The notes beneath the pieces are model-generated. The model had not been told where the DNA came from and did not search any database. It was given only the letters and a program-made list of their open reading frames with translations. A program made the position numbers and the translations under genes. Positions 9,640 to 63,581 of a stretch of DNA of 64,000 nt are shown here, piece after piece; the first letter of the stretch is position 1; each line of letters begins with the position of its first letter. This stretch comes from a bacterium (GTDB taxonomy: Bacteria > Acidobacteriota > HRBIN11 > JAKEFK01): NCBI GenBank assembly GCA_022616075.1, contig JAKEFK010000211.1:14164-78163 (forward strand), in the 5' to 3' direction.

Positions 9640-10004
9640 TGGAACTTGCAAGAATAAAATGTGAAGCCTGCCGCAGGGATGCTCCCCAGGTTACGGAAGC
9701 GGAACTGGCGGAATACAAGCCGCAAATCCCTGATTGGAAGCTTGTGGAACGAAATGGAATTCGCCAGCTGGAACGGAGCTTTTCTTTCAAGGATTTCGCT
9801 GAGGCTCTTGCGTTTACGAATCAAGTAGGCGCGCTGGCGGAATCAGAGAATCATCATCCGGCAATTCTCACGGAGTGGGGCCGCGTCACGATATCGTGGT
9901 GGACTCATAAGATCAAAGGCCTTCACCGCAATGACTTCATTCTAGCAGCCAGAACCGATATTGTTTTTAACCGCCAAGACGCCAAGACCGCCAAGTCACG
10001 ATAG
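9639..10004 (+). CDS. phhB: Pterin-4-alpha-carbinolamine dehydratase
   Basis: [35 protein letters not shown]. Confidence 0.93.
9969..9995 (+). repeat. Solo triplet-repeat arm AACCGCCAAGACGCCAAGACCGCCAAG inside the phhB 3' end
   Basis: Three GCCAAG units at 8-9 nt period; same arm at 21467, 60122 and 63556. Confidence 0.85.
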
Positions 10005-10005
10005 T

Positions 10006-10434
10006 ATGGGCGGAAGTAATCCTTACATCAAAACAGGTGACATTGTCTTACCGAAGACAAAGTACTCAATTCGTTTTGAGCCGGAAGACCCATCGATGGG
10101 AGAAGCTGTGACCATTGAGGTGGATCCCGAGAGAATTCCTTATCACGAGACCGGCCAGCCGGGGAGCATACTCAGCACTGCTCTCGCATCGGGAATTGAT
10201 ATTGAGCATTCCTGCGGTGGTGTTTGCGCATGTTCGACCTGCCACATCATAGTCAAAGAAGGATTGGATACTTGCAATGAAGCAACCGATGACGAGCTGG
10301 ATCAGCTGGAGGAGGCGCGCGGCTTAACGATGCAATCGCGATTGTCGTGTCAAACTGTACCGGATGGAACCAAAGATGTGCGCATTGTGATTCCGGCCTG
10401 GAATGTGAACCTCGTCAAAGAAACCCCGCACTAA
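10006..10434 (+). CDS. fdx: 2Fe-2S ferredoxin (adrenodoxin/ISC type)
   Basis: HSCGGVCACSTCH and SRLSCQ motifs. ATG 10006 (MGGSNPY) preferred. Confidence 0.92.
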   Translation: MGGSNPYIKTGDIVLPKTKYSIRFEPEDPSMGEAVTIEVDPERIPYHETGQPGSILSTALASGIDIEHSCGGVCACSTCHIIVKEGLDTCNEATDDELDQLEEARGLTMQSRLSCQTVPDGTKDVRIVIPAWNVNLVKETPH

Positions 10435-10516
10435 TTTCACCGCAGAGAACGCAGAGGCCGCGGAGATAAAACAAAATCTTTTTTTCTCTGCGATCTCAGC
10501 GCTCTCGGCGGTGAAA
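10435..10516. repeat. Inverted-repeat element with 32-bp triplet-repeat arms
   Basis: TTTCACCGCAGAGAACGCAGAGGCCGCGGAGA versus reverse complement of 10485-10516: 26/32 identical, 18-nt AT-rich spacer. Confidence 0.88.
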
Positions 10517-12493
10517 AATTGAAAGGATTTTGTCGCCGACTTCCGTGCGATCCACGACATCCATTCCGGAAATTACTTCACCGTAAATCGTGTAGTTCCC
10601 GTCTAGATGGGGTTGGCGCGATTGCGTTATGAAGAATTGCGATCCGCCTGTATCCTTGCCTGCAATGGGCATTCCCACCGTTCCGCGTTTGTAAATCAGA
10701 AGATTCACCTGATCATGGATCACCTTTCCTGCTCCGCCCCAGCCATCTCCCCGCGGGTCGCCGCCCTGTATCACGAAATTCGGCACGACGCGATGAATGC
10801 GAAGTCCATTGTAAAAACCGCCGTCAGCTAGTTTCCTGATATTCTCGGCGTGCAACGGCGCATCGCAACCTGACAAACGGATCACGACATCCCCTTTCTC
10901 CAGTTTCATCGTGATCTCAATGGAATCTTGCGGCCGGCCGAAGTCCGGTGAATATTCATTCATTTTTTTTGCCGGCACTTTTCCTTGCTGATAAAGAAAA
11001 TCTTCCGGATCCTTCGGATCGCCCTTCCAGTGGTATTGTGTTCCGACAAGTTTTTTGATTCCATCGATCGCATGGCGGCGAATTGTGTATTCGGGATCCA
11101 GCAGCGCCCGCTCAAAAATCGGCATAGCTTCAGATGTATTGAAGTCAGCCAGAACATCGAGAAGCGCCACTCGGCCTTCCACTTCAGAAGGATCACTGGA
11201 AGCATCATAAGTTTTGATCAATGCAGCGAAAAACCTGCGTTCTTTTGTTTTGCCCAGCGCATCGACCGCTGTGGCCCGTAACGCAAAATCCTTATGACCG
11301 AGCAACGGCAGGAAAACCTCAGCAGTATCAGGCAAGTATTTCGTTAAAGAATCGAACGCAGCCAGCCTGACAGCGGAATCGGAATCCTGACTCAGAACTT
11401 TCAACATAGGAATTGCCGAACCGGCGGGCAGTTCAACAAGCGCCTGTGCGGTCCTCCAGCGCACCGTCCAGGATTCGTGTTTGGCTCCTTCCTGCAACAA
11501 CGACAGCGCATTCTCTTTTTGTGTCTTTGCTTGAGCCATAATCCAGCCACCGAGCAAACCCGCAGTAGCCGGACGTTCGTCAATTACACATCCCAATAGG
11601 CCCATTGCTTCCAGAGCTTTCATTCTGGTCAGATGGTTCATTGTGCTGTAGTGTTTTTGAATAGCCACACACGCAGTTTTATCATTAGAAGCGCCGATTA
11701 CATCCAGTGTATTTTGTTGAACTCGCGCATCTTTATGTTGAAGCAGACGTTCAACTTCTTCCTCTGTCAGCGGTTTTTTCATAGACCACAATGCTTTTAA
11801 AGCAAACAACAACGCGGAAGGATCTTCTGTAGACGGACTGGGTAACGGATTTGCAAGAACCTTGTGCAAAACGGCAAGGGAACGTTCGTCTGCCAAACGA
11901 TACAGAGCGTACACGTAACTCCATTGCGCCGGATCCTCTTCATTGGCCAATTCGATCAGAACATCCACGGTGCCTTTGTCTTTGATCAAAGCAAGAGCAA
12001 GCGCCGATTGTTCACGGAGAAACGCATTTTTGTCGCGAAGGAATGGGACCACCAAAACTGTCGTATCCAATCCTCCGATCCGGCCGATCGCCTCAATCGC
12101 AAGCCTTCGAACTTCCGCATCCTCATCTTTCAATAGACGCGCTGCAAACAATAAGCCGTTCTTGGACCGAATCTGTCCAATCGCAAACGCAACGTATTTT
12201 CTCACGTTAGCATTCTTGTCTTCCAACAACGGTTCCAAAAATGGCAGAATCGCTTGATTGCCGATTCGCGCTGCGGCCAGCAATGCTCTAATGCGAATCT
12301 GTTCTGATGGAAAACGAAAATAATCGGCAAGTTTGATGTCCGGCTCTGCTTCCAACATCCGCTCATTTTCGAGAATTGCGATGATTCGCAACGAATCGTT
12401 AGAAAACGCGCTCGAAGCAAGAAACATTAGAAGGATCAACGCCAGGATTCTCCCCCTTATGAAGGGGGAGACTAAGAGGGGGTTGGCATGCAT
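10496..12493 (-). CDS. Exported HEAT-repeat protein with C-terminal cyclophilin-type peptidyl-prolyl isomerase
   Basis: Multiple HEAT repeats; FYNGLRIHRVVPNFVIQGGDP, DTGGSQFFIT, HLDGNYT. Confidence 0.9.
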   Translation of the reverse strand: MHANPLLVSPFIRGRILALILLMFLASSAFSNDSLRIIAILENERMLEAEPDIKLADYFRFPSEQIRIRALLAAARIGNQAILPFLEPLLEDKNANVRKYVAFAIGQIRSKNGLLFAARLLKDEDAEVRRLAIEAIGRIGGLDTTVLVVPFLRDKNAFLREQSALALALIKDKGTVDVLIELANEEDPAQWSYVYALYRLADERSLAVLHKVLANPLPSPSTEDPSALLFALKALWSMKKPLTEEEVERLLQHKDARVQQNTLDVIGASNDKTACVAIQKHYSTMNHLTRMKALEAMGLLGCVIDERPATAGLLGGWIMAQAKTQKENALSLLQEGAKHESWTVRWRTAQALVELPAGSAIPMLKVLSQDSDSAVRLAAFDSLTKYLPDTAEVFLPLLGHKDFALRATAVDALGKTKERRFFAALIKTYDASSDPSEVEGRVALLDVLADFNTSEAMPIFERALLDPEYTIRRHAIDGIKKLVGTQYHWKGDPKDPEDFLYQQGKVPAKKMNEYSPDFGRPQDSIEITMKLEKGDVVIRLSGCDAPLHAENIRKLADGGFYNGLRIHRVVPNFVIQGGDPRGDGWGGAGKVIHDQVNLLIYKRGTVGMPIAGKDTGGSQFFITQSRQPHLDGNYTIYGEVISGMDVVDRTEVGDKILSIFHRRER

Positions 12494-12535
12494 TCCAACC
12501 TCCCCCTAACCCCCCTCCTTCATAAGGAGGGGGAA
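12449..12535. repeat. 87-bp nested palindromic element (CCCCCTT..AAGGGGG type) inserted in a gene 5' end
   Basis: Two internal hairpins (CCCCCTTATGAAGGGGG; CCCCTCCTTCATAAGGAGGGG) in inverted arrangement around GGTTGG..CCAACC. Confidence 0.8.
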
Positions 12536-12555
12536 TCGATGCCTGATCTCTTCCA

Positions 12556-14664
12556 TCATTTATTGTTTTGGAGACGCGAAAGCGCAGTTTCGACAAATGC
12601 TTGATCATCGGGAGTGAGGGAGTAGTTACCGAATCGTGCCTTGTAAAACAGATCCGTCAAAGACGCAACATCCTCATTCGAAGGAGCCGGCAAGACCTGC
12701 GTCACTTGCTCGGCAAATTCGAAAGGAGTGGCAGCCACCGGCTTGACGAACCCCTTTTGTTGCAACAACGCCAGCATCTCCTGATAAAACAGAATCGGTG
12801 ACCGGATTAACTCCAATTTTCGCTTACGCGCTTTGTAAAAGCGAACCGCGTAATAGATGAGGCCCGGCAGCAATCCAATTAGAACCAGGAGAAGGCGATT
12901 CTGCTTCCACATCATACGCCACCAGGCATGGGGACTTGTTGCATTGCTGGATTTTTCCCGCAGAGTCTCATTCAGTTTCCTGTATCGTTCACGTACAGAC
13001 GTAAGCACGTTGATCTGATCCTGCGCAGAGAAAATCAGGATATATCTGTCCCAGAAGAAACTGATCGAATCGAAAATCTTTCGCGGGTTGATGATTTCCC
13101 AGATCGAACGGCTTCCTCCGGGACCTGCCACAGTACGAGGAGAAGGATCAAACTGAACCCAGAGACCGTTTCCAAAATAAACTTCTACCCAGGAATGGGC
13201 ATCACTCTGACGAATGGTATAAAATTCTCCGATTTCATTGTACTCACCTTCCAAAAATCCATTCACCAGTCGGGATGGTATTCTAATGTGTCTTAACAAA
13301 AGAACCATCGCGGTAGCAAAGTATTCACAATGGCCCATTTTCTTTTTGAAAAGAAACTCGGAAACCGGATCCGTTGCTGATCGCGGCAAATCGGTTGTCG
13401 TGTACTGGTAATTCTTCTCAAGATAGGCCTGAACCAGCGCAGCGCGATCGTACTGATTGGTGGCACTACCTGTGATTTGTTGAGCCAGTGTCTCAATCTC
13501 CGGATTTCGTGATGGCAGTCTTACGAAATGGCGGATACTTTCTGTAGAATCAACCTGCCGTGATCTCAACTGTTCCGGAGAATAGACATTGATTTGACTG
13601 TAAACAACGTAATGTTCCGGTCTCCCCATACCGGTCAATGTTCCATTTACATCCCGGCTCACTGCAAAGAAATTGCCGTCGACTCTTGCGACTCGATACT
13701 GGCCAAAAATTACGCCCGAATCAATCGGAGTCAAGTAGACTTCTTGTTTCACAAGAGAAGCAGGATTATTGCCCTCTGGAGATACAACAAAAGTACTCAA
13801 AGAATCTTGAAACACAAAGTCGGATCCATGTCTGGAGACACCCCAGGACTTGCCGTCATACCTATTGAAAGCCACGCCGCGCCAATAAAAGCGATGACCC
13901 GCAGGGATTCGCTCGCCGTTTACACGGATACGCATTACTTCGCCCGTGTTTTCCTGAATCTTGGCAATATCTCCCAGCTCCACCTTCTTTGAAAAGCCGG
14001 AAACATGCTGTGTCTGATCCAGTTTCAGTCCACCAAAATATCCGAGCTGCGCGCGAGGCAAAACAAAGAAAATGCCAAGCGCAAACACCACCATTGTTAC
14101 GGTTGCAATTACGATAAATCCCCAGTAACGCGCGTGAAATAAGGAAAAAGGAAAGGGCTCGGTGGGATCTGATCTGATCCACATTTTGATCATAGTGATC
14201 GACAGGATGTTCCAGACAAAGAACAGCGAAAAAAGAAGGATCATGTAGAGCATTTCAATTTCAACGCTGAGGGCGGTAGCTGCCAGCATGCTCAGGAAAG
14301 TCAAAAGATACAGCTGGTAATAGTCTCGATGCGTTTGGAGATTAAAGAGCTTGTTGATGATGATGAAAATGAATAGATGAACCAGCGAAGGAGCAAGACT
14401 TCTTGTGAGCCAGAACCAATCTGCGAAAAAGAAAATCAGGTAGAGGAAGGAAACAATCTCCCAAAATGAGCCTCCGCGAGGACGATGCACGAAACCCAGC
14501 GTGAACAGGCTGAAGACCAATAAAATCGCAGAGGAAATCCACAATTTTTGGGTGAGCATCAGTGAGACGCCGCTCACAAAAACAAGCAAGTGAGCTCCAA
14601 ATCGCAGGGCAGAAGTTACCCTTTCGTGATTTGGATCAACAGGTTTGTTCACAGTTTGATTCAT
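12556..14664 (-). CDS. TgpA-family transglutaminase-like membrane protein (DUF3488 + TGase + DUF4129)
   Basis: N-terminal TM helices, FYWRGVAF, GHCEYFATAM (catalytic Cys), DAHSWVEVY, FDPSP. Confidence 0.9.
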   Translation of the reverse strand: MNQTVNKPVDPNHERVTSALRFGAHLLVFVSGVSLMLTQKLWISSAILLVFSLFTLGFVHRPRGGSFWEIVSFLYLIFFFADWFWLTRSLAPSLVHLFIFIIINKLFNLQTHRDYYQLYLLTFLSMLAATALSVEIEMLYMILLFSLFFVWNILSITMIKMWIRSDPTEPFPFSLFHARYWGFIVIATVTMVVFALGIFFVLPRAQLGYFGGLKLDQTQHVSGFSKKVELGDIAKIQENTGEVMRIRVNGERIPAGHRFYWRGVAFNRYDGKSWGVSRHGSDFVFQDSLSTFVVSPEGNNPASLVKQEVYLTPIDSGVIFGQYRVARVDGNFFAVSRDVNGTLTGMGRPEHYVVYSQINVYSPEQLRSRQVDSTESIRHFVRLPSRNPEIETLAQQITGSATNQYDRAALVQAYLEKNYQYTTTDLPRSATDPVSEFLFKKKMGHCEYFATAMVLLLRHIRIPSRLVNGFLEGEYNEIGEFYTIRQSDAHSWVEVYFGNGLWVQFDPSPRTVAGPGGSRSIWEIINPRKIFDSISFFWDRYILIFSAQDQINVLTSVRERYRKLNETLREKSSNATSPHAWWRMMWKQNRLLLVLIGLLPGLIYYAVRFYKARKRKLELIRSPILFYQEMLALLQQKGFVKPVAATPFEFAEQVTQVLPAPSNEDVASLTDLFYKARFGNYSLTPDDQAFVETALSRLQNNK

Positions 14665-15755
14665 ATTTCGATAATGGAGTCTTGACGCATCAGGTGTTGC
14701 CAGTCTTCCACATACAAATTGCGAGCGCCCGAACTAACAAGCCCGAGCCGTGAAGGAAACCGGCGCGAACGCAACTGAAGCACAAGCGTTTCCGGCGATC
14801 CCGGGAGCTCCAGTTTTTCACTCGAATAATCTTTTCCGTCCCATTCCGCGAGATAGGAAAGGAGCGGAATTATGGAAATTGCCGTATCAAATACCTTTCC
14901 GGGCAGTACGATTCGAGCATCAATCTCTTGTTCCCTGAAGAGAAATGCAAGAGAGGCGAGGAAACTGATCGCGGTTTCAAATACAGGATCGCGGGGCTTA
15001 TCCGGAAAGGAATCGAAGTACAAATAGAGATCGCGGCCCTGCTCCCGCTGGTACTCTTTTACGAGAAGTTTCTCCGCCTTTGCGGAGGCTTTCCAGTGAA
15101 TCTTTTTGCTCGAATCAAAGCTGTTATAGTCCCTCAAATGCAATAATTGCTGGCTATCGCCCCGATAGGGAGATTCTCGGAGAATCCCTTCTGAAAATCG
15201 AGAAAGAATGTCTTCAGAAAAACGATAGAGGTGAGGATACACCCGAACCGGTTGCTCCAGGAAATATCTGCGGATTTTCAAAAAGAAGGAGAATGGAAAT
15301 TGTGTTTGCAATTCCATTTCCTTGAGAGTAAAAACTCCGCGGCGCGAAAAAAGAAATCGCGCGTAACCGCTTGCATGATTCTGGGCAGGGATGTAGAAAA
15401 AATGACGGCTGATACTTGTGAATTTTGGATCGCGCACCGCAAAACGGATGGCAAGAGAAGGCAATTTCTTTTTTCGATTGGAAACAGAAATGTAGCAAAG
15501 CGATTGAACTCCCGCAAATAGATGATCAGGGAACTGCAACGTGGGATGCAAACCCTGCAGGATCCGGCGGCTGGCCATCCCCGATACAACGATCATTCCC
15601 AGCATCAATGAAAAAATCAGGTACAGAACATTGTTGCCGGTGTTCACCGCAGCCGCGCCGATCGCCAGCGAAAGAAGCATGAAGATCACTCCTTCCCGCG
15701 TGAATTCAACCGCAATGGGCATACGCGGCAACCGGAGCTTTATTGCAGATTGCAT
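14661..15755 (-). CDS. DUF58 domain protein
   Basis: AAVNTGNNVLYL, LRDYxxxDxxKKIHWKASAK, LLVKEY. Start may be ATG 15722. Confidence 0.88.
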   Translation of the reverse strand: MQSAIKLRLPRMPIAVEFTREGVIFMLLSLAIGAAAVNTGNNVLYLIFSLMLGMIVVSGMASRRILQGLHPTLQFPDHLFAGVQSLCYISVSNRKKKLPSLAIRFAVRDPKFTSISRHFFYIPAQNHASGYARFLFSRRGVFTLKEMELQTQFPFSFFLKIRRYFLEQPVRVYPHLYRFSEDILSRFSEGILRESPYRGDSQQLLHLRDYNSFDSSKKIHWKASAKAEKLLVKEYQREQGRDLYLYFDSFPDKPRDPVFETAISFLASLAFLFREQEIDARIVLPGKVFDTAISIIPLLSYLAEWDGKDYSSEKLELPGSPETLVLQLRSRRFPSRLGLVSSGARNLYVEDWQHLMRQDSIIEI

Positions 15756-15797
15756 ATTGAAGGGTCCCCTTTACTTTTGCAATATGCAATTTGCAAT
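15742..15797. repeat. Inverted heptamer-repeat pair (ATTGCAG/ATTGCAT)
   Basis: ATTGCAGATTGCATATTG at 15742-15759 versus reverse complement of 15780-15797: 17/18 identical. Confidence 0.7.
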
Positions 15798-15801
15798 GGC
15801 A

Positions 15802-17565: not shown

Positions 17566-17621
17566 GGTATGATCAAATTATATATTTGTTTTAGGTCTGC
17601 GTCTTTCAGGAACAGTTTAGA

Positions 17622-18368: not shown

Positions 18369-19527
18369 GAAAATTCTATACATCGAAGCAACTTCCGGAG
18401 TTTCCGGCGACATGCTGCTCGGTGCCCTTTTGGACGCAGGCGTTCCGGTCGAAGTGCTCTCCGAAGCATGGACCGCGCTTGACATCGATAACTACGAAGT
18501 GGAAGTATTTCAAACGCAAAAAAGCGGGATGAATGCGCTACGATGCCGCGTCTCCACTCAGGAAACAAAAGGAGCGAAAACGTGGAAACAGTACCAATTG
18601 CTGCTGGAGAACTCAAAACTGCCGGAAAAGATCCGCCAACAAACGCTTTCTCTCGTGAAACGTCTCTTTGAAATTGAAGCTTCCATCCACGGATCCAGCC
18701 TTCAGAAACTACACCTCCACGAAATGGGTGGAACGGACCTGCTGCTGGACGTCACCGGAACGCTCTCTGCTCTGGATTATCTACAGCCTTCTTTGATCAA
18801 GTCTTCCCCAGTAAATACAGGCTGCGGCTTCCTCACCTTTTCTCACGGTCGCTTTCCGATTCCAGCTCCCGCAACTACTAAGCTATTAGAAGGAATATCA
18901 GTGTTTCAGAATGAAGTGGAAGGAGAATTGACGACACCTACGGGAGCGCTCTTGATCGGCTCGATTGCGAAATCATTCGGTGTGATGCCTGAAATGAAGC
19001 TGGAAAATACCGGAGTGGGAGCAGGTGAAATGGAAATTGCGGGCCATCCAAATGTATTGAGGATTTTTGTTGGAACAGGCGCAGCTCCGGAAGAAGAAAT
19101 TTACATGGTGGAAACGAATCTGGATGATTCTTCTCCTCAAGTTCTCGCTTATTTCATGGAAAAAGCATTTGAACTAGGAGCGCTGGACGTATTCTTTACT
19201 CCCATTTTTATGAAAAAGAACCGGCCGGCGGTTCGTTTAACTCTGCTCGTTTCCTCCGGCTTGCTGGAATCAATGTTGAAACTGTTGTTTTCGGAAACAA
19301 CGGCAATTGGACTTCGCTACTGGAAAGTGGATCGAAAGACTCTGGACCGGCGGTGGAGCAAAATTCAGCTGGGAAAGCAGGAGATCCGCATCAAAGAAAG
19401 TTATCTCAACGGCACTCTCGCAAATTATCAGCCCGAATATGAAGACTGCAAGAAAGCCGCCGAAAGGTTGAATACCCCGGTAAAAGAAGTGATCGCGCAA
19501 GCGATTCACAAATACTTGTCGAAGTAG
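18361..19527 (+). CDS. larC: Nickel pincer cofactor biosynthesis protein LarC
   Basis: SGVSGDMLLGALLD, PAPAT, ELTTPTGA, ETNLDD, MKKNRP, PEYEDC. Confidence 0.9.
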   Translation: MAEKILYIEATSGVSGDMLLGALLDAGVPVEVLSEAWTALDIDNYEVEVFQTQKSGMNALRCRVSTQETKGAKTWKQYQLLLENSKLPEKIRQQTLSLVKRLFEIEASIHGSSLQKLHLHEMGGTDLLLDVTGTLSALDYLQPSLIKSSPVNTGCGFLTFSHGRFPIPAPATTKLLEGISVFQNEVEGELTTPTGALLIGSIAKSFGVMPEMKLENTGVGAGEMEIAGHPNVLRIFVGTGAAPEEEIYMVETNLDDSSPQVLAYFMEKAFELGALDVFFTPIFMKKNRPAVRLTLLVSSGLLESMLKLLFSETTAIGLRYWKVDRKTLDRRWSKIQLGKQEIRIKESYLNGTLANYQPEYEDCKKAAERLNTPVKEVIAQAIHKYLSK

Positions 19528-19733
19528 TGGCAGAGCATTTACTACGCCAAGGGAACAAGCCTCAAGCTCCGCAGGGTTTTGCCCCGCACACCCACTTTCT
19601 AAGAGTAAATGCTCTGCAGCCATTCCGCGGCAAGCAGAGCATTTTCACACCGATAGTGATTTCGAGGAAAAATCAGAGTTTGTTCAACTGGGAATGTGCA
19701 TAACAGGCCGTATGGAAAATGCTCTGCCACTAC
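19524..19733. mobile_element. 210-bp MITE/REPIN-like double-hairpin element, copy 1
   Basis: 17-bp perfect terminal inverted repeat GTAGTGGCAGAGCATTT, plus an internal AAATGCTCTGC / GCAGAGCATTT pair. Homologue at 49630. Confidence 0.8.
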
Positions 19734-21453: not shown

Positions 21454-21466
21454 AAACTCTAATTTA

Positions 21467-21537
21467 AACCGCCAAGGTGCCAAGGCGCCAAGAAAACCCA
21501 TAATATAAGAATTTGGCTTCTTGGCGTCTTGGCGGTT
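21467..21537. repeat. Inverted-repeat element with GCCAAG triplet arms
   Basis: AACCGCCAAGGTGCCAAGGCGCCAAG ... TTGGCTTCTTGGCGTCTTGGCGGTT between truB and lgt. Confidence 0.88.
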
Positions 21538-21544
21538 AAGAAAT

Positions 21545-22420
21545 TCATTCGTGGAAGACGATTTTTGGCTTTAATTCTGTTTTCTCTCCGCTTTTTGTCT
21601 GCGCAATGGCGAGCAGTGTGTTGTTTTCATCAAATACTTTTACCCAGTCCTGATCATACTTTTCTTCTACTGCAATCGCGGAACCATTCAAAATCTTTTT
21701 CCCTTGCGAAGCATCTACGGTAAATTGCGGAAAGTCAGACAACATCTGCGCAATCGGGACAAACGAAGCTTTCAATTTTTCGATTGGCGCTTCGGGCGGC
21801 GCGCATTCCTCCAGTGTAAAATTCTTAAATTTCGTGCGCGCTAGCTCATTGACATGCGCACCGCAACGGAGCCTCATTCCCAGTTCCCGAGCCAAGGAAC
21901 GTACGTACGTCCCGGATCCGCAGTGCATGTAGATGACCGCGACATCCTTCTCAAAATGCATCAATCGGATCTCATGAATCTTCACTTTTTGCAAAGGAAG
22001 ATCAGGTTTGATCCCTTTTCGCGCCAGATCATATGCTTTTTTTCCCTGAATTTTTTTCGCTGAAAAAATCGGAGGCTTCTGCTGAATTTCTCCCTGAAAG
22101 GAAGAAATCACTTTTTCGAGCTGTTCTCTGGAAAAACGGATCCTAGTGTAGGGACCTTCCTGTTTTCCCTCCCGGTCGTCTGTTGTTGTAAAAATACCGA
22201 AACGGATTGCCGCAAGATAGCATTTATCAGCGCGCATATAAAAAGGACTGAGTCTTGTCGCTTTTCCAAGACAAACAGGAAAGACACCGGTAGCGATCGG
22301 ATCCAATGTGCCCAGATGCCCTGCTTTATCCACCTGCAACCGTTCCTTCACTCTTTGAACCACGGTGTGAGAAGTGTCCCCTTCCGGCTTGTTGATCAGT
22401 ATTAAACCGTCCCAGTTCAC
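21545..22420 (-). CDS. truB: tRNA pseudouridine(55) synthase
   Basis: NKPEGDTSH, GHLGTLDP.ATG, CGSGTYVRSL. GTG 22420 overlaps the rbfA stop (GTGA). Confidence 0.95.
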   Translation of the reverse strand: MNWDGLILINKPEGDTSHTVVQRVKERLQVDKAGHLGTLDPIATGVFPVCLGKATRLSPFYMRADKCYLAAIRFGIFTTTDDREGKQEGPYTRIRFSREQLEKVISSFQGEIQQKPPIFSAKKIQGKKAYDLARKGIKPDLPLQKVKIHEIRLMHFEKDVAVIYMHCGSGTYVRSLARELGMRLRCGAHVNELARTKFKNFTLEECAPPEAPIEKLKASFVPIAQMLSDFPQFTVDASQGKKILNGSAIAVEEKYDQDWVKVFDENNTLLAIAQTKSGEKTELKPKIVFHE

Positions 22421-22770: not shown

Positions 22771-22785
22771 CGCCTTGATCCTTTC

Positions 22786-25110: not shown

Positions 25111-25116
25111 GCTTGA

Positions 25117-26385: not shown

Positions 26386-26387
26386 TG

Positions 26388-26870: not shown

Positions 26871-26883
26871 AAAATCCTCGCAA

Positions 26884-26913
26884 CAAAAAATAAAGTGGGC
26901 ATGTAGCCCACTT
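26884..26913 (-). terminator. Intrinsic-terminator-like attenuator hairpin in the rimP leader
   Basis: AAGTGGGC-TACAT-GCCCACTT followed by TATTTTTT on the minus strand, between the promoter and rimP. Confidence 0.7.
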
Positions 26914-26937
26914 ACAGGCATTCTGATTGGAAGTGTA

Positions 26938-27659: not shown

Positions 27660-28391
27660 ATGCAAGCTGCAATATTCAATAGATTTCTGGCGGGCGCGCG
27701 CATGATCTTTGCCTGCTCCTTCATCGCTGTTTACTTGATCATCGTGGGGATACCGGTTCTCAGCTACTGCCGGATCATGGGGAATCCGCGACTGGCTCTT
27801 TATTTGACAAAAGTGCTGGACCAAATGGTTCTCTTTCTGGGCGGAATTCGATTGAAAGTGCGCGGACTGGAGAAACTGGATCACAATCGTGGCTATGTCT
27901 ATGTGGGGAATCATAGAAGTCATGTGGACGGCGCAGCGGTTTTCCGGACCGTGCCCGGAGATGTCAGGTTCCTGATTAAGAAGGAAGCTTTCCGTATTCC
28001 TCTGGTATCTTTTGCGTTAAGCACAATGGGAATGATCGAAGTAGACCGGTCCAATCCGGAAGCTTCTTCGCGAAGCATTGACCGCGCTGTTTCAGAAATC
28101 CGATCAGGCCATTCGGTGATTCTTTTTCCGGAGGGCACACGGAGCCGGCAATCGAACATGCTTCCATTCAAAAAGGGAGCATTTGTCCTGGCAATCAAAT
28201 CTCAAGCGCCGGTAGTTCCCTTTACTTTGATTGGCGCGGAGCAGGCATTACCGCCGGACACAATTCTCCTATATGGAGGAGAGGTCGAGTTAATTTTTCA
28301 CGATCCTATTGAAACAACCGGACTCAGTCTGGAAAACCGTGAGCAGTTGTTGCAACAAGCCCAAACCCGCGTAAATTCGGCTCTTTTTTGA
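27660..28391 (+). CDS. plsC: 1-acyl-sn-glycerol-3-phosphate acyltransferase
   Basis: NHRSHVD (HX4D) and FPEGTRS motifs; start uncertain. Confidence 0.9.
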   Translation: MQAAIFNRFLAGARMIFACSFIAVYLIIVGIPVLSYCRIMGNPRLALYLTKVLDQMVLFLGGIRLKVRGLEKLDHNRGYVYVGNHRSHVDGAAVFRTVPGDVRFLIKKEAFRIPLVSFALSTMGMIEVDRSNPEASSRSIDRAVSEIRSGHSVILFPEGTRSRQSNMLPFKKGAFVLAIKSQAPVVPFTLIGAEQALPPDTILLYGGEVELIFHDPIETTGLSLENREQLLQQAQTRVNSALF

Positions 28392-28879
28392 ACAGAAGCA
28401 CGCAAAGATCGCAAAGGAAACAATATTTTATGCATCAGAAATTTAAGAAAGCTGATCGCCTAAGCAAAAGAGTCATCGGTGCGGCGATCGAAGTTCACCG
28501 AGTAATGGGACCAGGTCTTATCGAATCGATTTATCAAAAATGTTTAATACGTGAACTGCAATTATCCGGAATCCATTGCGCTTCGGAAGTAAGGATTCCG
28601 CTCGAATACAAAGGTGCAATCTTTGATGAACAACTCAAGATGGACGTTTATGTTGACGACTGTCTTATCCTGGAACTTAAAGCTGTTGAAAGTATCCTTC
28701 CGATTCATAAAGCACAGATTTTGACCTACATGAAGTTACTAGACGTTCCTGTAGGGCTTCTAATCAACTTTCACAGTACGCTACTAAAGCATGGCATCAG
28801 CCGTTTAATTCTTGCGGGTGCTGACAAATCAACGTAAGAAATCTGTCTTTGCGTCCTTCGCGACCTTCTGTTCAAAAAA
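28384..28879. mobile_element. Putative 496-bp element: GxxExxY gene bounded by 33-bp imperfect inverted repeats
   Basis: 28384-28416 versus reverse complement of 28847-28879: 28/33 identical, outermost 15 nt perfect. Confidence 0.65.
28430..28837 (+). CDS. GxxExxY protein (PD-(D/E)XK nuclease superfamily)
   Basis: VIGAAIEVH..GPGLIESIY (GxxExxY), D..V....ILELKAV, AQILTY, GLLINF. Confidence 0.93.
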   Translation: MHQKFKKADRLSKRVIGAAIEVHRVMGPGLIESIYQKCLIRELQLSGIHCASEVRIPLEYKGAIFDEQLKMDVYVDDCLILELKAVESILPIHKAQILTYMKLLDVPVGLLINFHSTLLKHGISRLILAGADKST

Positions 28880-28891
28880 GAGGTTCGTTAT

Positions 28892-30735: not shown

Positions 30736-30736
30736 C

Positions 30737-46489: not shown

Positions 46490-46511
46490 GGCATTATTAT
46501 ATCTGCAATTC

Positions 46512-49615: not shown

Positions 49616-49629
49616 CCAGTCATTTTAGC

Positions 49630-49841
49630 GTAGTGGCAGAGCATTTGCTATTCTGCTCGAACAGATTCACTACTTCCAAGACACATCGACTAGCATGAAC
49701 AAATCATCATTACAGCAAATGCTCTGCAGCAGTTTTGAAATATAAGCAGAGCATTTTGTGCCGATACAGAATTTCAAGCAAAATTCTAGTTTAGACTCCA
49801 AACTATTCATGTGCGCTGGATGGAAAATGCTCTGCCACTAC
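49630..49841. mobile_element. 212-bp MITE/REPIN-like double-hairpin element, copy 2
   Basis: Same 17-bp terminal repeat GTAGTGGCAGAGCATTT and internal repeat pair as 19524-19733. Confidence 0.8.
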
Positions 49842-49858
49842 GTTGAATCTGTGAAGAA

Positions 49859-50836: not shown

Positions 50837-50856
50837 CGCACTCCCCCTTAATTTCT

Positions 50857-53370: not shown

Positions 53371-53373
53371 TTC

Positions 53374-55952: not shown

Positions 55953-55974
55953 GTTACCCACCCCTCAGCTCAAC

Positions 55975-56026
55975 GTAGCGCGGGCGTCCCGCCTGCGGAA
56001 CTGCGCAGACGAAACGTACGCGCTAC
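55975..56026. repeat. REPIN-like doublet GTAGCGCGGGCGTCCCGCCTGCG...CGCAGACGAAACGTACGCGCTAC
   Basis: Inverted arms starting with GTAG; same family as 378 and 62107. Confidence 0.88.
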
Positions 56027-56068
56027 ATTCTCTATTGTACTGAAAAAGAGTACTTGTGCCGCAGGAAT

Positions 56069-56107
56069 AAAAAAAAATAAAGGGGCGATGCAATGCATCG
56101 CCCCTTT
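56069..56107 (-). terminator. Intrinsic terminator of the TonB-dependent receptor gene
   Basis: 13-bp stem AAAGGGGCGATGC / GCATCGCCCCTTT followed by a U-run on the minus strand. Confidence 0.88.
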
Positions 56108-56121
56108 GTGTGGAAGAGGTT

Positions 56122-59079: not shown

Positions 59080-59128
59080 ACGCTCCTCCTAATGAGAGTT
59101 AATGTGTGTTCAAGAACGACCTCCTTTT

Positions 59129-59144
59129 CGCAAGAGTCGTGCCA
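59129..59144 (-). promoter_or_regulatory. Sigma54 (-24/-12) promoter of the TonB-dependent receptor
   Basis: TGGCAC-GACTC-TTGCG on the minus strand, 50 nt upstream of the ATG. Confidence 0.8.
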
Positions 59145-59324
59145 TCAATTTCTCGTCGGTCTCGTTGGCACATTCATTTCCAAACAGGAGTGAGTGGTTC
59201 TTCAATTGGAACCGTGTAAAGTACCTTTCGTATCCGATTGTGGAACTGTGGAGCCTTGTTTCGTACGGTTCAATCCCGGATTCGCCACAACGAGCGATAA
59301 TTCAGCTTATTGGAGTTTTAACTT

Positions 59325-59391
59325 AACACAGAGGCGCAGAGACACAGAGAAAAACATTTTTCTAATCTCTGTGCCTCTGTGTCTCTGTGTT
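59325..59391. repeat. Inverted-repeat element with (A/G)CAGAG triplet arms
   Basis: AACACAGAGGCGCAGAGACACAGAGA versus reverse complement of 59366-59391: 23/26 identical. Confidence 0.88.
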
Positions 59392-59394
59392 GAA

Positions 59395-59763
59395 TTAATC
59401 TACTTTATTAGATTTGCGGGCGGGGAGTGTGAGTGCGAGCTTGTCAACAAACTCGTAGAAGCGGTCTTTGTAATTCCGGCTCCAGGTCAGTTCTGTGCCG
59501 TCACTAAGGATCACGTGATATTCACCTTTCAACCATGGTTTCAATTCCCGAATCGAATCGACGTTCACGATATAGGAGCGATGGATCCGAATAAACGATT
59601 CAGGATCCAATTCCCCCTCCAGAGTCTGGATACCGGCGCGCACCGGATAATAATTCCCTTCACAATGAAGATGACTGTATTTTCCTTTGGCCTCAATCCA
59701 GTGAATTTCTTCCTGATTCACAAACAACAAGCTTCCACTAGAGCGAATCAAGAGTCTTTTCAT
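59395..59763 (-). CDS. Stand-alone LytTR DNA-binding domain protein
   Basis: EIHWIEAKGKY, FIRIHRSYIVN, G.ELTWSRNY; no receiver domain. ATG 59763 or TTG 59811. Confidence 0.85.
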   Translation of the reverse strand: MKRLLIRSSGSLLFVNQEEIHWIEAKGKYSHLHCEGNYYPVRAGIQTLEGELDPESFIRIHRSYIVNVDSIRELKPWLKGEYHVILSDGTELTWSRNYKDRFYEFVDKLALTLPARKSNKVD

Positions 59764-59831
59764 TTTCTTCTTCTTATTGTCCCCTCTTGATTTCAAATCC
59801 ACATCCTCCAAAAGAATGAGGCGACTGCCAC

Positions 59832-59891
59832 AAAAAAGGGCGACTCCATTTCAGAAGCCGCCCTTCTCCTTCGTAATGAAGGAGCCATGAG
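59832..59891 (-). ncRNA. Candidate small structured RNA A (conserved CUCAUGG + hairpin + terminator)
   Basis: CTCATGGCTCCTTCATTACGAAGGAGAAG, then a GGGCGGC/GTCGCCC stem and U-run. 5' end unknown. Confidence 0.45.
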
Positions 59892-60052
59892 GACTAAACA
59901 TTAAGACGAAAATGAAAAGCAAAAGGTTGTGTAAATTTGAAAAATTTTTTGGGAGGAAGAAAAGATAGTTCTAAAGAATGAAAACTTTATCCCTCCTTTT
60001 CAGCTTGTGCGGAAATGAACACCTGGTGTCTGATAGAGTCGTTAACTCCTCT

Positions 60053-60115
60053 CTCATGGCTCTTTCATTGTGAAAGAGAAGATGGCGATCTTCCCCACAG
60101 ATCGCCATTTTTTTT
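60053..60115 (+). ncRNA. Candidate small structured RNA B (paralogue of A, opposite strand)
   Basis: CTCATGGCTCTTTCATTGTGAAAGAGAAG (25/29 identical to A), then an ATGGCGATC/GATCGCCAT stem and T8. Confidence 0.45.
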
Positions 60116-60121
60116 AAGCTC

Positions 60122-60196
60122 AACCGCCAAGGCGCCAAGAACGTCAAGAAAAAACTAAAAATATTTTGACGTTGGTGCCATAGCGTCTTGGCGGTT
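60122..60196. repeat. Inverted-repeat element with GCCAAG triplet arms (degenerate right arm)
   Basis: AACCGCCAAGGCGCCAAGAACGTCAAG ... AGCGTCTTGGCGGTT. Confidence 0.8.
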
Positions 60197-60200
60197 TGAA

Positions 60201-60731
60201 TTATTTACAAACCTGTTCTTCACCTGTAACAAAGAATTTCGTACGCACCACTTTCGCAATCCCATTTCCGAACACTGTTACGACATACAGGTTGTCATAA
60301 TCCGAATCGTCAATCTCCTGGACCTCGCCGCCTCCCAGCGCCTCAATAATCTCGGGCAAAGTATTGCTGTGACCCACCACGAGAACGGTTCCGCCAGAAT
60401 GCTTCGACAAAATCGATGCTACTAACTTATTCGTAGTTCCCGCATCTACCGTTTCCAGGGAAATGCGCAAGCGTTTCGCAAGCGGTTCACCGGTCAATCT
60501 CGTTCGTGCGAATTGCGACGTGTAGATTGCATTCAAGCCTGAGTTTTCGAACATGCGCACCAGAAGCTCCGCTCTTGCGACGCCTTGAGGCGACAGTGGA
60601 GGATCGTCTCCGGAGGTTACGACCTTTTCGGCATGTCGAACGAGAAGGACGGTTGTGAGTTTTTGTTTCCCGAATGCAGCGCCACTCAAAAGAAAATAAA
60701 AAAGAACAATCAGTAATGTAATTCGTTTCAC
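60201..60731 (-). CDS. Secreted histidine-phosphatase-family protein (SixA/phosphoglycerate-mutase-like)
   Basis: LLVRHAEK, PPLS..G..RA, VLVVGHSNT. GTG 60731 has a GGAGAG RBS. Confidence 0.88.
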   Translation of the reverse strand: MKRITLLIVLFYFLLSGAAFGKQKLTTVLLVRHAEKVVTSGDDPPLSPQGVARAELLVRMFENSGLNAIYTSQFARTRLTGEPLAKRLRISLETVDAGTTNKLVASILSKHSGGTVLVVGHSNTLPEIIEALGGGEVQEIDDSDYDNLYVVTVFGNGIAKVVRTKFFVTGEEQVCK

Positions 60732-60741
60732 GTGACTCTCC

Positions 60742-62079
60742 TTATTTATAGCGCGTCCCATGCTTAAGGACGATATCCACATCTTGCAACAGATTGATGT
60801 GACGCAGTACGTCTCCGCGTACCGCAATGATGTCCGCATATTTGCCTTCAGAAATGGTTCCGAAATCTTTTTCGACTTTCATGGCAAGAGAAGGCCAATA
60901 TGTTGCGGCGCGAATGGCATACATAGGATCCACTTTGAATGTGTTCACCCATGCGTCCAGTTCTTTCCAGGTTGATTGACTGTGAAAATTCATGGGAATG
61001 CCACTGTCCGTGCCGATCAGTAGCACAACACCCGATTCCATAAGCTGATGGAATTTTCGTGAAAGAGTTGGTCGCCGGTTCGGTGTTATTTGAAAATAGG
61101 GCAGACGCTCAGGGTGCAGGATGGAATCGCGAATATCCTGAATGATTTCCTGCGGCAATCCTTCCTGCCAGGAAGGATCGTCTAATTCTTCCGGATTATC
61201 CCGAATCGATTCGTAGTTCAATAAGCCTTCGACTGTGGGAGTCCAGAACAAAGGACCAAGATTCATTTTTGCCGTTCGTTCGCGAATCATCGATATGATA
61301 TCGGAGGGATATTCGGGCGCGGAAGCCAGTCCGGTGTGTTCGAAACAATCCACACCCACTTGCAGGCCTCTGCGAATTTCTTCCGGCCGGTGTGAATGAG
61401 CAACCACGGGAAGCGAATGTTTGTGCGCTTCATCAACAACGGCATTCACTTCTTCCATGGTCATCTGATCCTGATCGATCAGCTTAATCATGTCCACACC
61501 GGCTACGGCCAGCTGCCTGATTTTTGCGCGCGCATCGGACACACCTTTAACTCCCCAGCGAAAGAATTCAGTTCCAGGATAGGGTTCGTGTTGAATAAAG
61601 GGACCGGACACGTACAAATTAGGTCCGGGAATTTTGCCCGATTTGATTGCCTCCCGCACGACAATACTCTCACGCAAAGGCGCGCCGAGATCACGCACAC
61701 TGGTCACGCCGGCCAGTAGCAATTGTTTCGCGGAAGCAGGCATGATTACGGATTCATATTGTGGTGGATACGTTTTGTCCCAGTGTTCGTAATTCGCGTG
61801 ACCGTTGATGTCCAGATGGACATGCATGTCCCACAAACCCGGCAAAACGGACATACCTTCCGTAGAAATAATTTCAGCGCCCTCTGGCACAGGCAACGTA
61901 CCAACCTGTCCGATTGCTTTGATTCGTTCCCCTTCGATAAGGATTACGCTATTCCGGATCGGTTTGCCGCCATAACCGTCAATTAACGTTCCGCCCACCA
62001 GCGCTTTGAATTGTTGCGCGGATGCGGTTGCTAGAAAAAGAAAAGTAAGAAGAAGACAGAGGAGTGGTTTCAATTTCAA
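60742..62079 (-). CDS. Secreted amidohydrolase-family protein
   Basis: LPGLWDMHVH, GVTSVRDLG, carboxylated-Lys region IKL, GTDSG, G.I..GKYADIIAV. Confidence 0.88.
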   Translation of the reverse strand: MKLKPLLCLLLTFLFLATASAQQFKALVGGTLIDGYGGKPIRNSVILIEGERIKAIGQVGTLPVPEGAEIISTEGMSVLPGLWDMHVHLDINGHANYEHWDKTYPPQYESVIMPASAKQLLLAGVTSVRDLGAPLRESIVVREAIKSGKIPGPNLYVSGPFIQHEPYPGTEFFRWGVKGVSDARAKIRQLAVAGVDMIKLIDQDQMTMEEVNAVVDEAHKHSLPVVAHSHRPEEIRRGLQVGVDCFEHTGLASAPEYPSDIISMIRERTAKMNLGPLFWTPTVEGLLNYESIRDNPEELDDPSWQEGLPQEIIQDIRDSILHPERLPYFQITPNRRPTLSRKFHQLMESGVVLLIGTDSGIPMNFHSQSTWKELDAWVNTFKVDPMYAIRAATYWPSLAMKVEKDFGTISEGKYADIIAVRGDVLRHINLLQDVDIVLKHGTRYK

Positions 62080-62106
62080 TTACCTCCTGTGCCATTTTAG
62101 AACAAA

Positions 62107-62160
62107 GTAGCGCGGGCGTCTCGCCTGCGGAGCTTAGCGCAGACGAGACGTCCGCGCTAC
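62107..62160. repeat. REPIN-like doublet GTAGCGCGGGCGTCTCGCCTGCG...CGCAGACGAGACGTCCGCGCTAC
   Basis: Inverted GTAG arms; overlaps the last codons and stop of the upstream membrane gene. Confidence 0.88.
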
Positions 62161-63480
62161 GAGCGAGAAGACAATCATACCGCCGGTGAGAAGCAGGTAC
62201 ATCATTTGCACCGAAAGAGTAGCCGTGCCATACCAGCCGGCAAAATCGAAGCCCGGAGTTTTCCCGCTGTCATTCATGACCAGATACAAAAACATCAGAA
62301 AGCTAACCATGAACGCTTTTGGGTTACCGCTTGCGATTCCAAGCGCAATCGCGCTCGATGCTAGGAATGCTGATCCGATGATGAGAGAGATGGATGCGGA
62401 TGGTTTGAAGAGAATCAGCCGCAACACCGGGATGCATACAAGAAACAGAACAAATGCAAATGCGGTGCCCAGCTTCCACCAGACAAAGTGAGGTTTTAAC
62501 AAAGGCATCGATTCCAGCATGGTGCTTGTTCCCGCACTCTTTTCGCGGGTTGGCAAATCTGCCAGAATCATTGCCACTCCAACGAAGAGTGCCGGTAAAA
62601 TTTTTTGCTGTAGCGAGTCCATTCCGGAAAACAAGGATGCTGTCAATGAACCGAAGAGAAATAATCCTGTGAGCGGCTTTAACTGTAGAGTCAGCAGCAC
62701 TTCAGAAAGGATCGCGTTGAAGAATCCCGGTCTTGCCGAAATTCTTATAGAAAAGAGAGGAGCAATAAGCGGCTTGATCAGGGCGTTCAACCTTCCCACA
62801 AGACTTCTGCGAGAACCGACCTGTGAGGACTTGATTCTTGTGGGATTAAACCGGTGAAATGCGAACATCGCGCCGATCACAAATATCAAAGGAAACAGTG
62901 TTGATACGATTCGAGACAGAATCCAGGACCGTGAGAGCGTTAAACCGGGAAACAGAAAAGGAGGTTGTGATGCATCAAAACTACTGCTTCCGATGGATAA
63001 AGAGTCTGACCCTGTAATTTGTTTTACCTGCTCCAGCATGAATGCAAAACTGAATGTATCAAAATAAGAGCTCCAGTTCGTTCCCCCGAGTTTTTCAGCT
63101 GAAACAGCGACCATGCCGAAAGCAAACATCCATACGAGAAAATAACAGAGGTCTCCAAACCGGCCGGAGAGCCAGCGAATAGATTCAAACAACAAAGCAA
63201 TTCCAGACACAAAGATGATCATGGGCGGTAACAGAAGCGCGTAGTGCCATAGAAAAGAAGAAAACCGGACTGCGGCTTCTCCGCGTACAAGTTGCATCAC
63301 CATACTGCTCAGCATGAATCCGAAGATGACGACCGACAAAAAAAGTACATTACTCAGAAAAATGCCAATCAAGTATTCGTGATTGCGGACTGTCGTGGAG
63401 GCGATGACGAATCCTGTACGCGTCCGCGTGTCCCTTCCGATTGAGTTACTAACAAGGTAGTAGCCCACCAACCCGAGCAA
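62134..63480 (-). CDS. ABC-2-type multi-pass membrane protein, apparently 5'-truncated
   Basis: Many TM helices; GYYLVSNSIGRDTRTRTG..IAST motif. No good start in frame. Confidence 0.6.
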   Translation of the reverse strand: MLGLVGYYLVSNSIGRDTRTRTGFVIASTTVRNHEYLIGIFLSNVLFLSVVIFGFMLSSMVMQLVRGEAAVRFSSFLWHYALLLPPMIIFVSGIALLFESIRWLSGRFGDLCYFLVWMFAFGMVAVSAEKLGGTNWSSYFDTFSFAFMLEQVKQITGSDSLSIGSSSFDASQPPFLFPGLTLSRSWILSRIVSTLFPLIFVIGAMFAFHRFNPTRIKSSQVGSRRSLVGRLNALIKPLIAPLFSIRISARPGFFNAILSEVLLTLQLKPLTGLFLFGSLTASLFSGMDSLQQKILPALFVGVAMILADLPTREKSAGTSTMLESMPLLKPHFVWWKLGTAFAFVLFLVCIPVLRLILFKPSASISLIIGSAFLASSAIALGIASGNPKAFMVSFLMFLYLVMNDSGKTPGFDFAGWYGTATLSVQMMYLLLTGGMIVFSLVARTSRLR

Positions 63481-63482
63481 AA

Positions 63483-63536
63483 TAGCGCAAACACGCCGGA
63501 TCGATATTTTTTGGATACGTTTTCAATTCGAATCAT
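63483..63536 (-). pseudogene. 18-codon N-terminal remnant of an ABC transporter ATP-binding gene
   Basis: GAGGGG RBS plus MIRIENVSKKYRSGVFAL, a typical ABC ATPase start; then joins out of frame to the permease. Confidence 0.6.
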
Positions 63537-63555
63537 CGGTATTCCCCTCTAGATC

Positions 63556-63581
63556 AACCGCCAAGGCGCCAACACGCCAAG
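63556..63581 (+). repeat. Solo GCCAAG triplet arm
   Basis: AACCGCCAAGGCGCCAACACGCCAAG. Confidence 0.75.

Follow-up and report, generated by a model that had tools for sequence, protein, structure and literature searches.

Dispersed through the window, a 64,000-nt stretch of contig JAKEFK010000211.1 (Acidobacteriota), are four doublets of inverted arms that enclose no gene, and two solo arms of the same build. We read these six features as gene-less or decayed copies of a compact family of palindromic insertions, the full-length members of which carry a gene for a GxxExxY protein (TIGR04256/PF13366), and which would spread by the action of this predicted nuclease; the probability of this reading is, roughly, 0.6. 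The GxxExxY family is very large (over 7,900 relatives at E ≤ 1e-10, among the matches listed) and functionally uncharacterized, and a stereotyped element of ∼450 bp supplies it with a biological context: most family members sit in iteron-like inverted arms (60 of the 72 sampled), and the elements appear to shed mobile gene-less copies. Literature naming GxxExxY is scarce, and a paper that names it says nothing on the flanks of the gene. The GxxExxY palindromic elements are apparently an undescribed but widespread family of small insertion elements.

Architecture of the elements and their gene-bearing counterparts

The full-length form, of ∼450 bp, consists of a single GxxExxY gene between two inverted arms. 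Each arm has a terminal (T)(G)AAC or CAC, followed by two to six tandem units of 8-9 bp, in which a core, (C)RCNNAG, is joined to one or two free bases. All four doublets and both solo arms were found where an earlier note on this sequence had placed them, and the common grammar that it had read in them (an AAC or CAC end, three units of 8-9 nt that end in AG, and the inverse on the opposite side) was recovered as well, with about three tandem units per arm and RCNNAG as their core; the units are better given as a core, (C)RCNNAG, of 6-7 nt with one or two spacer bases. Their number lies well above the chance level: the GCCAAG arm pattern AACCGCCAAGRNGCCAAG, with up to three mismatches, has nine matches in the window against 0.33 expected (0 of 100 shuffles reach nine), strict three-unit RCNNAG chains at 8-10-nt spacing occur eight times against 0.26 expected, and a relaxed core-based finder returned 13 against 2.3 expected. 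This finder was used instead of a fixed-lag periodicity detector (lag of 8 or 9), which was too strict because the units mix 8 and 9 nt. The arm pairs are among the longest inverted repeats in the window (inverted-repeat scan), and the single-strand folds of all four doublets reach −35 to −45 kcal/mol (z = −6.4 to −10.7). Every copy is intergenic, and the doublets lie 0-8 nt from the stop codons of housekeeping genes (ferredoxin, truB, a LytTR regulator, and a histidine phosphatase, His_Phos). Neither solo arm has a partner arm within 2.5 kb, and a scan of the window with Rfam gave nothing at the gathering score.

The same design is the usual flank of GxxExxY genes elsewhere. We assembled 80 GxxExxY loci, one per species, from Verrucomicrobiota, Planctomycetota, Proteobacteria, Chloroflexota, Acidobacteriota, Bacteroidota, Gemmatimonadota, and one Methanothrix (loci and contigs are cited here by L numbers), 72 of which had both flanks available. 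A strong inverted repeat brackets the gene in 60 of these 72 loci, compared with 0 of 216 control positions in the same loci, and RCNNAG cores at 8-10-nt spacing are present in 53 of those 60 inverted repeats. The kinship between the dispersed elements and the GxxExxY arms that had been proposed from the window is supported. The arm types observed include ACAGAAG-GTAACGAAG-GAAACGAAG (the type of the closest relatives of the window's GxxExxY gene), CACCACAGAG-ACACAGAG, CACCGCAGAG-GCGCAGAG, CGCAAAG, and ACATAG. Arms of the GCAGAG and ACAGAG types flank GxxExxY in L077, L082, L042, L065, L083, L047, and L049, and these give the corresponding gene-less copies their gene-bearing counterparts, TTCACC terminus included. 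For the GCCAAG type, metagenome contigs were scanned with a combined pattern of arm plus gene, yielding at least 120 stretches; among those listed, at least 92 have a match to the GxxExxY hidden Markov model and at least 47 have three or more GCCAAG cores on both sides. GxxExxY paralogues with GCCAAG- and GCAGAG-type arms, on which the earlier note had made its proposal depend, thus exist, in other genomes.

Arms and genes also vary together. In 87 of 117 cases the nearest protein neighbor has the same core (31% by chance), indicating that arm subtype tracks protein relatedness, though not strictly. Some taxa harbor many GxxExxY paralogues per genome, and in L042 two paralogues that are 750 nt apart have different arm types. 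Across 1.8 Mb, GxxExxY is the only genuine cargo between RCNNAG arm pairs, and is enclosed by them 75 times. Seven candidates for other cargo were rejected: they proved to be doublets lying side by side, phage genes with unrelated solo arms on either side, or noise.

The derivation of the gene-less copies is evident in the GCCAAG type, where the short forms measure 60-190 bp, the full-length elements cluster sharply at 441-487 bp, and intermediates are few. Among the intermediates, L149, L252, L199, and L225 contain a truncated GxxExxY coding sequence between intact arms. Since these truncated genes join the ∼455-bp elements to the 60-190-bp doublets, they identify the doublets as deletion derivatives, and the comparison indicates that gene-less doublets arise by internal deletion of full elements. 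Further structural variants include a unit number of 2-6 (L251; a range up to 7 was also counted), a doublet of the GCAGAG type that sits exactly within the loop of one of the GCCAAG type (L126), and tandem arrays of gene-less doublets beside GxxExxY in L009 (4700-5620; period of about 105 bp), L037 (5457-5979; 163 bp), and L046 (4560-5551; about 110 bp). Several loci are arranged as doublet-gene-doublet rather than arm-gene-arm. In this window, the short forms are more numerous than the full ones (Table 1).

Table 1. Arms, doublets, and the full-length element in the window (window coordinates).
Feature	Position	Strand	Details
Solo left-type arm, GCCAAG subfamily	9969..9995	+	AAC-CGCCAAG-A-CGCCAAG-AC-CGCCAAG; pattern match
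Gene-less doublet, GCAGAG subfamily	10435..10516	.	arms 10435-10471 / 10480-10516, 37 nt, 81% complementary
Candidate further member, tandem heptamers ATTGCAN	15742..15797	.	inverted 18-nt arms, 94% complementary, 20-nt loop
Gene-less doublet, GCCAAG subfamily	21467..21537	.	arms 21467-21491 / 21513-21537, 25 nt, 84% complementary
Full-length element, one gene between inverted arms	28381-28882		arms 36 nt, 86% complementary
Left arm of full-length element	28381..28416	+	…TTTTTTGAAC-AGAAG-CA-CGCAAAG-AT-CGCAAAG; inverted-repeat scan
GxxExxY gene, 135 aa, predicted minimal PD-(D/E)XK nuclease fold	28430..28837	+	TIGR04256, PF13366
Right arm of full-length element	28847..28882	-	inverted-repeat scan
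Gene-less doublet, ACAGAG/GCAGAG subfamily	59318..59398	.	arms 59318-59350 / 59366-59398, 33 nt, 85% complementary
Gene-less doublet, GCCAAG subfamily, right arm decayed	60122..60196	.	pattern match
Solo left-type arm, GCCAAG subfamily	63556..63581	+	intergenic, upstream of 448-aa gene

Gain, replacement, and conservation of copies

Syntenic contigs of relatives, labeled Acidobacteriota, were retrieved via the neighboring proteins. The doublet at 60122-60196 is missing in L140, L141, and L142 (His_Phos 80, 78, and 66% identical, respectively) and in a contig of run X6; the empty site reads TAAATAGTAATC^AAAAAAATGGCG, and these absences point to an insertion in the lineage of the window. Comparison of the filled with the empty site revealed no target-site duplication, and among 99 GCCAAG pairs no conserved or duplicated flank was found, AAC being preceded at most by a weak T-G (the termini agree on (T)(G)AAC and then CGCCAAG, with flanks that are not conserved). 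At the PCD-fdx junction, which is empty in L263, L265, and L267, the window has a solo GCCAAG arm and L264 has an ACAGAT-type doublet, two independent insertions. After the ferredoxin stop codon, an orthologous GCAGAG-type doublet is shared by the window, L264 (ferredoxin 93% identical), and L267 (87%). At this site the closest relative, L263 (ferredoxin 96%), has a GCCAAG-type doublet of 4+3 units between identical flanks (…CACTAATTT on one side, AAA…TGAAAGGATTTTGTCGCC on the other), and L265 and L266 have a right arm only, of another type. The stop of the LytTR gene is likewise followed by an ACAGAG-type doublet in the window, a full GCAAAG-type doublet in L142, and half of one in L141. These differences are gains and wholesale replacements, and the swap of subtype at identical boundaries in the closest relative cannot be gradual drift. 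Together these comparisons show that new intergenic sites acquire copies, close up to stop codons, and that one subtype can replace another at identical boundaries.

The gene of the full-length element matches TIGR04256 at 1.7e-40 (138 bits; curated cut-off 35) and PF13366 (PDDEXK_3) at 1.4e-39 (135.5 bits; cut-off 22), and the residues D72, E82, and K84, a D…ExK triad, are invariant in an alignment of 22 homologues. The AlphaFold2 model of the protein has a pLDDT of 90.3, and its best Foldseek neighbors (Cas4 SSO0001, lambda exonuclease, and RecE) are all weak, with a TM of about 0.5, which is compatible with a minimal PD-(D/E)XK core. No match was found in a sequence search of the Protein Data Bank with the family profile, nor with the PADLOC (anti-phage defense) and PHROG (phage) models. 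An orthologous element occupies the same plsC-cofH junction in L005, and the two GxxExxY genes are 80% identical, with a nonsynonymous divergence (dN) of 0.12 and a saturated synonymous divergence (dS); the neighboring genes have a dS of about 0.8-1.2 and a dN/dS of 0.03-0.11. The right arms share 25 of 27 bases, both changes falling at spacer positions, and the left arm is also conserved; the leader and trailer of the element have diverged. A dN of 0.12 with saturated dS, together with the kept arms, indicates that gene and arms remained functional long after insertion, and both bear the mark of purifying selection over that time.

What is kept in the arms is their sequence. Over 92 arm pairs, the identity between the two arms is 0.97 for the cores and 0.68 for the spacers, compared with 0.58 for the spacers of unrelated elements. 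Over 128 elements, mismatches that give G.U on the mRNA strand number 123 and those of the opposite type 148 (p = 0.14), and transversion mismatches are common (219). The two arms may have unequal numbers of units, and in fold predictions a stem with 7-bp helices and internal loops of 1-2 nt still forms. Kept cores, loose spacers, no G.U bias, and unequal units constitute the pattern of iterons and not of a helix under compensatory change, and the earlier suggestion that spacing and structure are recognized rather than sequence therefore did not hold.

Mechanism, competing explanations, and related systems

In the mechanism that we propose, the cores would be iterons, to which an oligomeric protein binds in a sequence-specific manner. 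The simplest candidate for this protein is the encoded nuclease, which would cut iteron-bearing or palindromic sites. Repair or copying from another copy would then spread or replace elements in a manner similar to homing or gene conversion, with no target-site duplication, and gene-less copies could be propagated in trans. The element would be co-transcribed with the upstream gene, and the arms of the transcript would pair into a stem of about 25-30 bp with interruptions; by analogy with the intervening sequences (IVSs) of 23S rRNA, which have the same build, this stem probably serves RNase III as a substrate and shields the host mRNA. The central step, namely binding of the cores by the nuclease and copying or conversion driven by it, including that of gene-less copies, is tentative, and we would sooner bet against it than for it.

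Several observations weigh against the nuclease-driven account. No transposase or recombinase was recognized, and no target-site duplication or conserved target was found. Proteins that are 77-81% identical can carry different cores, and L192 has hybrid arms, both of which argue against a tight specificity between protein and core. GCCAAG arms occur in 52 IMG/VR contigs, none of which contains GxxExxY, and the combined pattern of arm plus gene had no match across viral contigs; one of the 52 is a real phage, with L105 (153-2529) being a genuine phage contig with capsid-like genes and intergenic GCCAAG-type arms. The arm type of the resident element (ACAGAAG/GCAAAG) matches none of the six gene-less copies. 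The resident gene is ancient where it stands and is held by purifying selection, which suits a domesticated gene, or one of use to the host, as well as an active selfish one. The doublet at the ferredoxin site, orthologously kept in three lineages (the window, L264, and L267), could mean a host function. Finally, S23p proteins, which are not nucleases, are encoded between arms of the same tandem-unit, inverted architecture, and so the nuclease cannot be a universal engine.

This last point came from the flanks of S23p genes (PF05635, 23S_rRNA_IVP), one of which, in L009 (6509-6940), lies between inverted arms in which TTATTNG units are repeated in tandem. The same arm architecture, with other units, surrounds every other S23p gene that has usable flanks, in L070, L052, L046, and ten IMG/VR contigs (L268-L277, found with a degenerate DNA motif; L272 is only a weak case). 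These units, of 7-8 nt, include TTATTNG, GGTAAGAG, AGTGGAG, AACGTTC, CTGAGAA, and TGGAAGN. The S23p genes in question lie outside rRNA, often within a few kb of GxxExxY elements, and in L198 and L245 an S23p gene abuts a GCCAAG-type GxxExxY element. The architecture is thus not exclusive to GxxExxY, and occurs in other unit "dialects".

The strongest rival explanation holds that the palindromes are carriers indifferent to their cargo. Host processes, or an enzyme with its gene elsewhere, would spread them (e.g., by template switching or slippage at hairpins, by recombination, or through a recombinase that went unrecognized), and GxxExxY and S23p would be passengers that gain expression or mRNA processing, and not the engine. 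The shared design of the GxxExxY arms, the four S23p loci, the ten IMG/VR contigs, and the Coxiella IVS (see below) is consistent with such carriers, as are the arms without any cargo in phage and viral contigs and the different cores of close proteins; the variation in unit number from 2 to 7 and the doublet arrays in L009, L037, and L046 suggest slippage. Against it, the RCNNAG arm pairs enclose only GxxExxY (75 versus 0), while the S23p arms use other units, and such a dialect for each cargo family is what reading of the units by the cargo protein would lead one to expect. Arm type also follows protein similarity, and the cores are conserved as sequence in both arms while the spacers are free. 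We consider cargo-indifferent carriers unlikely, at perhaps a quarter of the overall weight.

By shared architecture, the closest known kind is the IVS. In Coxiella the 23S IVS is described as a selfish element of 428 nt with a terminal inverted-repeat stem of 28 bp, and beside its S23p open reading frame (ORF) it has two or three tandem heptamers, GACAGAT, the number of which varies between strains; RNase III cleaves within the stem, and ORF-less forms exist (PMC4990558). Similar to the IVSs of Coxiella burnetii and Leptospira, which measure ∼430-450 nt and enclose one small ORF in terminal inverted repeats that form a stem of ∼28 bp, the window family has tandem short repeats in its arms, of variable number (2-6 units of 8-9 nt), and sits in the loop of a hairpin or palindrome. 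It differs in its cargo, which is a predicted PD-(D/E)XK nuclease (PF13366) and not S23p (PF05635), in its RCNNAG-type units of 8-9 nt, and in its location in the intergenic DNA of protein-coding operons instead of a 23S rRNA helix. The window has no rRNA (Rfam scan) and no S23p homologue, and no 23S motif was present in the other loci examined. To our knowledge, dispersed gene-less copies, and their gain and replacement, have not been described for IVSs. The best filing of the family is as a new variant of IVS-type element. The shared architecture ties it to the 23S rRNA IVSs, the origin and spread of which have been open since around 1990, and the nuclease offers a concrete enzyme that can be tested. 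A wider proposal would unite GxxExxY elements, S23p elements, and classical 23S IVSs in one unrecognized class of bacterial mobile DNA, made up of minimal palindromic cassettes with iteron arms, which would enter hairpin loops and the ends of genes and duplicate no target, with GxxExxY as the homing or conversion enzyme that reads the tandem cores and propagates gene-less copies; this is speculative, and we put it slightly below the central step on which it builds.

Alternatively, the hairpins may belong to the host: stem-loops resident in 3′ untranslated regions or intergenic DNA, similar to repetitive extragenic palindromic (REP) sequences and serving as mRNA stabilizers, terminators, or RNase III sites, would evolve in place, and GxxExxY would land in them. 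Such hairpins would be expected where the copies lie (all intergenic, 0-8 nt from a stop codon) and with stems as strong as those given above; the ferredoxin-site doublet kept in the window, L264, and L267, and the conserved arms of the old element, also fit. However, evolution in place does not agree with presence, absence, and independent insertion in close relatives, nor with the wholesale replacement of subtype in the relative with a 96% identical ferredoxin. The nesting and the truncated-gene intermediates likewise speak against it, as do the lack of a T-tract after the stems, the spacers that are not kept paired, the absence of a G.U strand bias, and the occurrence of identical arms in unrelated phyla and viral contigs. 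The polymorphism data already strain this explanation, and we regard it as improbable.

The preferred reading, that of nuclease-bearing insertions and their gene-less copies, has parallels in two further systems. Homing endonuclease genes, free-standing or intron-borne, including that of the PD-(D/E)XK enzyme I-Ssp6803I, are similar in that a small nuclease gene persists as a selfish insert between host genes, and replacement at identical boundaries is the outcome expected of conversion after a targeted break. They are not known to have iteron arms or dispersed gene-less copies, and for GxxExxY cleavage is here only predicted. The Foldback (FB) transposons of Drosophila have long inverted arms of short tandem subrepeats in variable number, and most copies lack a coding centre, with few carrying genes; these are eukaryotic, of kilobase scale, and unrelated in sequence and protein, and serve as an analogy only.

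An integron origin, in which the doublets would be attC-like sites moved by an integron integrase and GxxExxY would be cassette cargo, is very improbable. The AAC…GTT termini, the promoterless small genes, and the unpaired spacers between boxes, which recall the R and L boxes of attC, are points of likeness, together with the order doublet-gene-doublet and the short arrays in some loci (L009, L036, L033, L062, and L069). It fails on the defining features of termini, box structure, and gene position: (T)(G) and not the YYY of RYYYAAC precedes AAC, three to six identical boxes at a period of 8-9 nt replace the R and L boxes, and the gene lies inside the palindrome in 75 pairs and not between complete sites. 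The copies are dispersed singly, and no integrase was present in the annotated 20 kb around the gene or near the array of L009.

Least probable of all, and close to negligible, is a classical system of REP doublets forming hairpins and REP-associated tyrosine transposases (REPIN/RAYT), or an ordinary MITE (miniature inverted-repeat transposable element) of a DDE transposon, since the protein family and other defining features rule out both memberships. Similar to REPINs, to which the earlier note had likened the family, gene-less inverted doublets are dispersed in intergenic DNA, a small gene is flanked by the same sequence in inverted orientation, and vertical inheritance over a long time and purifying selection can mark the gene; similar to MITEs, there are internal-deletion forms with the same ends and rare truncated intermediates between the size classes. 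The enzyme, however, is PF13366/TIGR04256 and neither an IS200/IS605-like HUH Y1 protein (RAYT) nor a DDE or other known transposase, and the elements have neither a GTAG/CGTC tag nor a target-site duplication. Their arms start with AAC or CAC and are iteron-like arrays of direct repeats, not palindromic REPs, and the many paralogues per genome in some taxa are a further difference. GTAG-tagged REP families exist separately in this genome.

Transcription context and neighboring sequences

The elements seem to have no promoter of their own and to be transcribed together with the gene upstream. In 61 of 91 elements, the distance from the end of a co-directional upstream ORF (at least 100 aa) to the left arm is no more than about 40 nt, and mostly 0-14 nt. 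In the GCCAAG type, ATG, GTG, or TTG directly precedes the terminal AAC in 38 of 67 elements, and 58 of 67 have an open frame across the arm; the start codon at this terminus often makes an ATGA stop/start overlap, e.g., in insertions between ispD and ispF. In L164 a GCCAAG-type GxxExxY element lies ∼12 nt downstream of the 3′ end of a tRNA (…GGTTCGATTCCCGCCACCTCCACCA). As for RNA data, the window sequence was found in DNA metagenome runs only.

The repeats also mark hot spots of intergenic turnover beside housekeeping genes, and they create spurious N- or C-terminal extensions of neighboring ORFs. The pterin-4a-carbinolamine dehydratase ORF reads through the solo arm at 9969-9995 with its 3′ end (9961-10004). 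The doublet at 10435-10516 begins right after the ferredoxin stop, and the convergent HEAT/cyclophilin (PPIase) gene ends within its right arm (10496-10516). The doublet at 21467-21537 is placed between truB (stop at 21545) and lgt, and the annotated start codon of lgt falls in its loop (21499-21501), such that arm sequence would encode the lgt N-terminus. The left arm of the full-length element contains the TGA stop of plsC (28389-28391), the doublet at 59318-59398 adjoins the stop codon of the LytTR gene, and that at 60122-60196 is 4 nt from the stop codon of the His_Phos gene. Annotations of homologues contain similar arm-derived extensions. Furthermore, the repeats break metagenome assemblies: many homologues are on contigs of about 1 kb, and contigs of metagenome run X4 break at the solo arm 63556-63581.

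The candidate at 15742-15797, situated between two minus-strand genes, has arms that read ATTGCAG-ATTGCAT-ATTG and CAAT-ATGCAAT-TTGCAAT, and the start codon predicted for the gene at 14661..15755 falls in its left arm. Its architecture is as in the doublet family, with another unit, and kinship with the family is possible.

Separately, a non-coding region of ∼300 nt between His_Phos and LytTR (59812-60120, minus strand) is conserved in L140-L142. It contains conserved hairpins; immediately upstream of LytTR is a terminator-like GGGCGGCTTCTGAAATGGAGTCGCCC+T6, and positions 60083-60117 hold a terminator on the plus strand. The region could be a leader or small RNA, and it has no match in Rfam.

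Other repeats in the window include two copies, at 19524-19733 and 49628-49847, of a MITE-like element of about 210-220 bp. Its terminal inverted repeats read GTAGTGGCAGAGCATTT, a second inverted pair lies further in (AAATGCTCTGC / GCAGAGCATTT), and the design resembles a GTAG-tagged REP doublet. The GTAG-tagged palindromes at 55972-56029 and 62107-62160 (GTAGCGCGGGCGTCTCGCCTGCG…CGCAGACGAGACGTCCGCGCTAC) belong to a very high-copy REP-like family: their k-mer depth in the source sediment metagenome is roughly 30-250x the genome baseline, and dozens of contigs end there.

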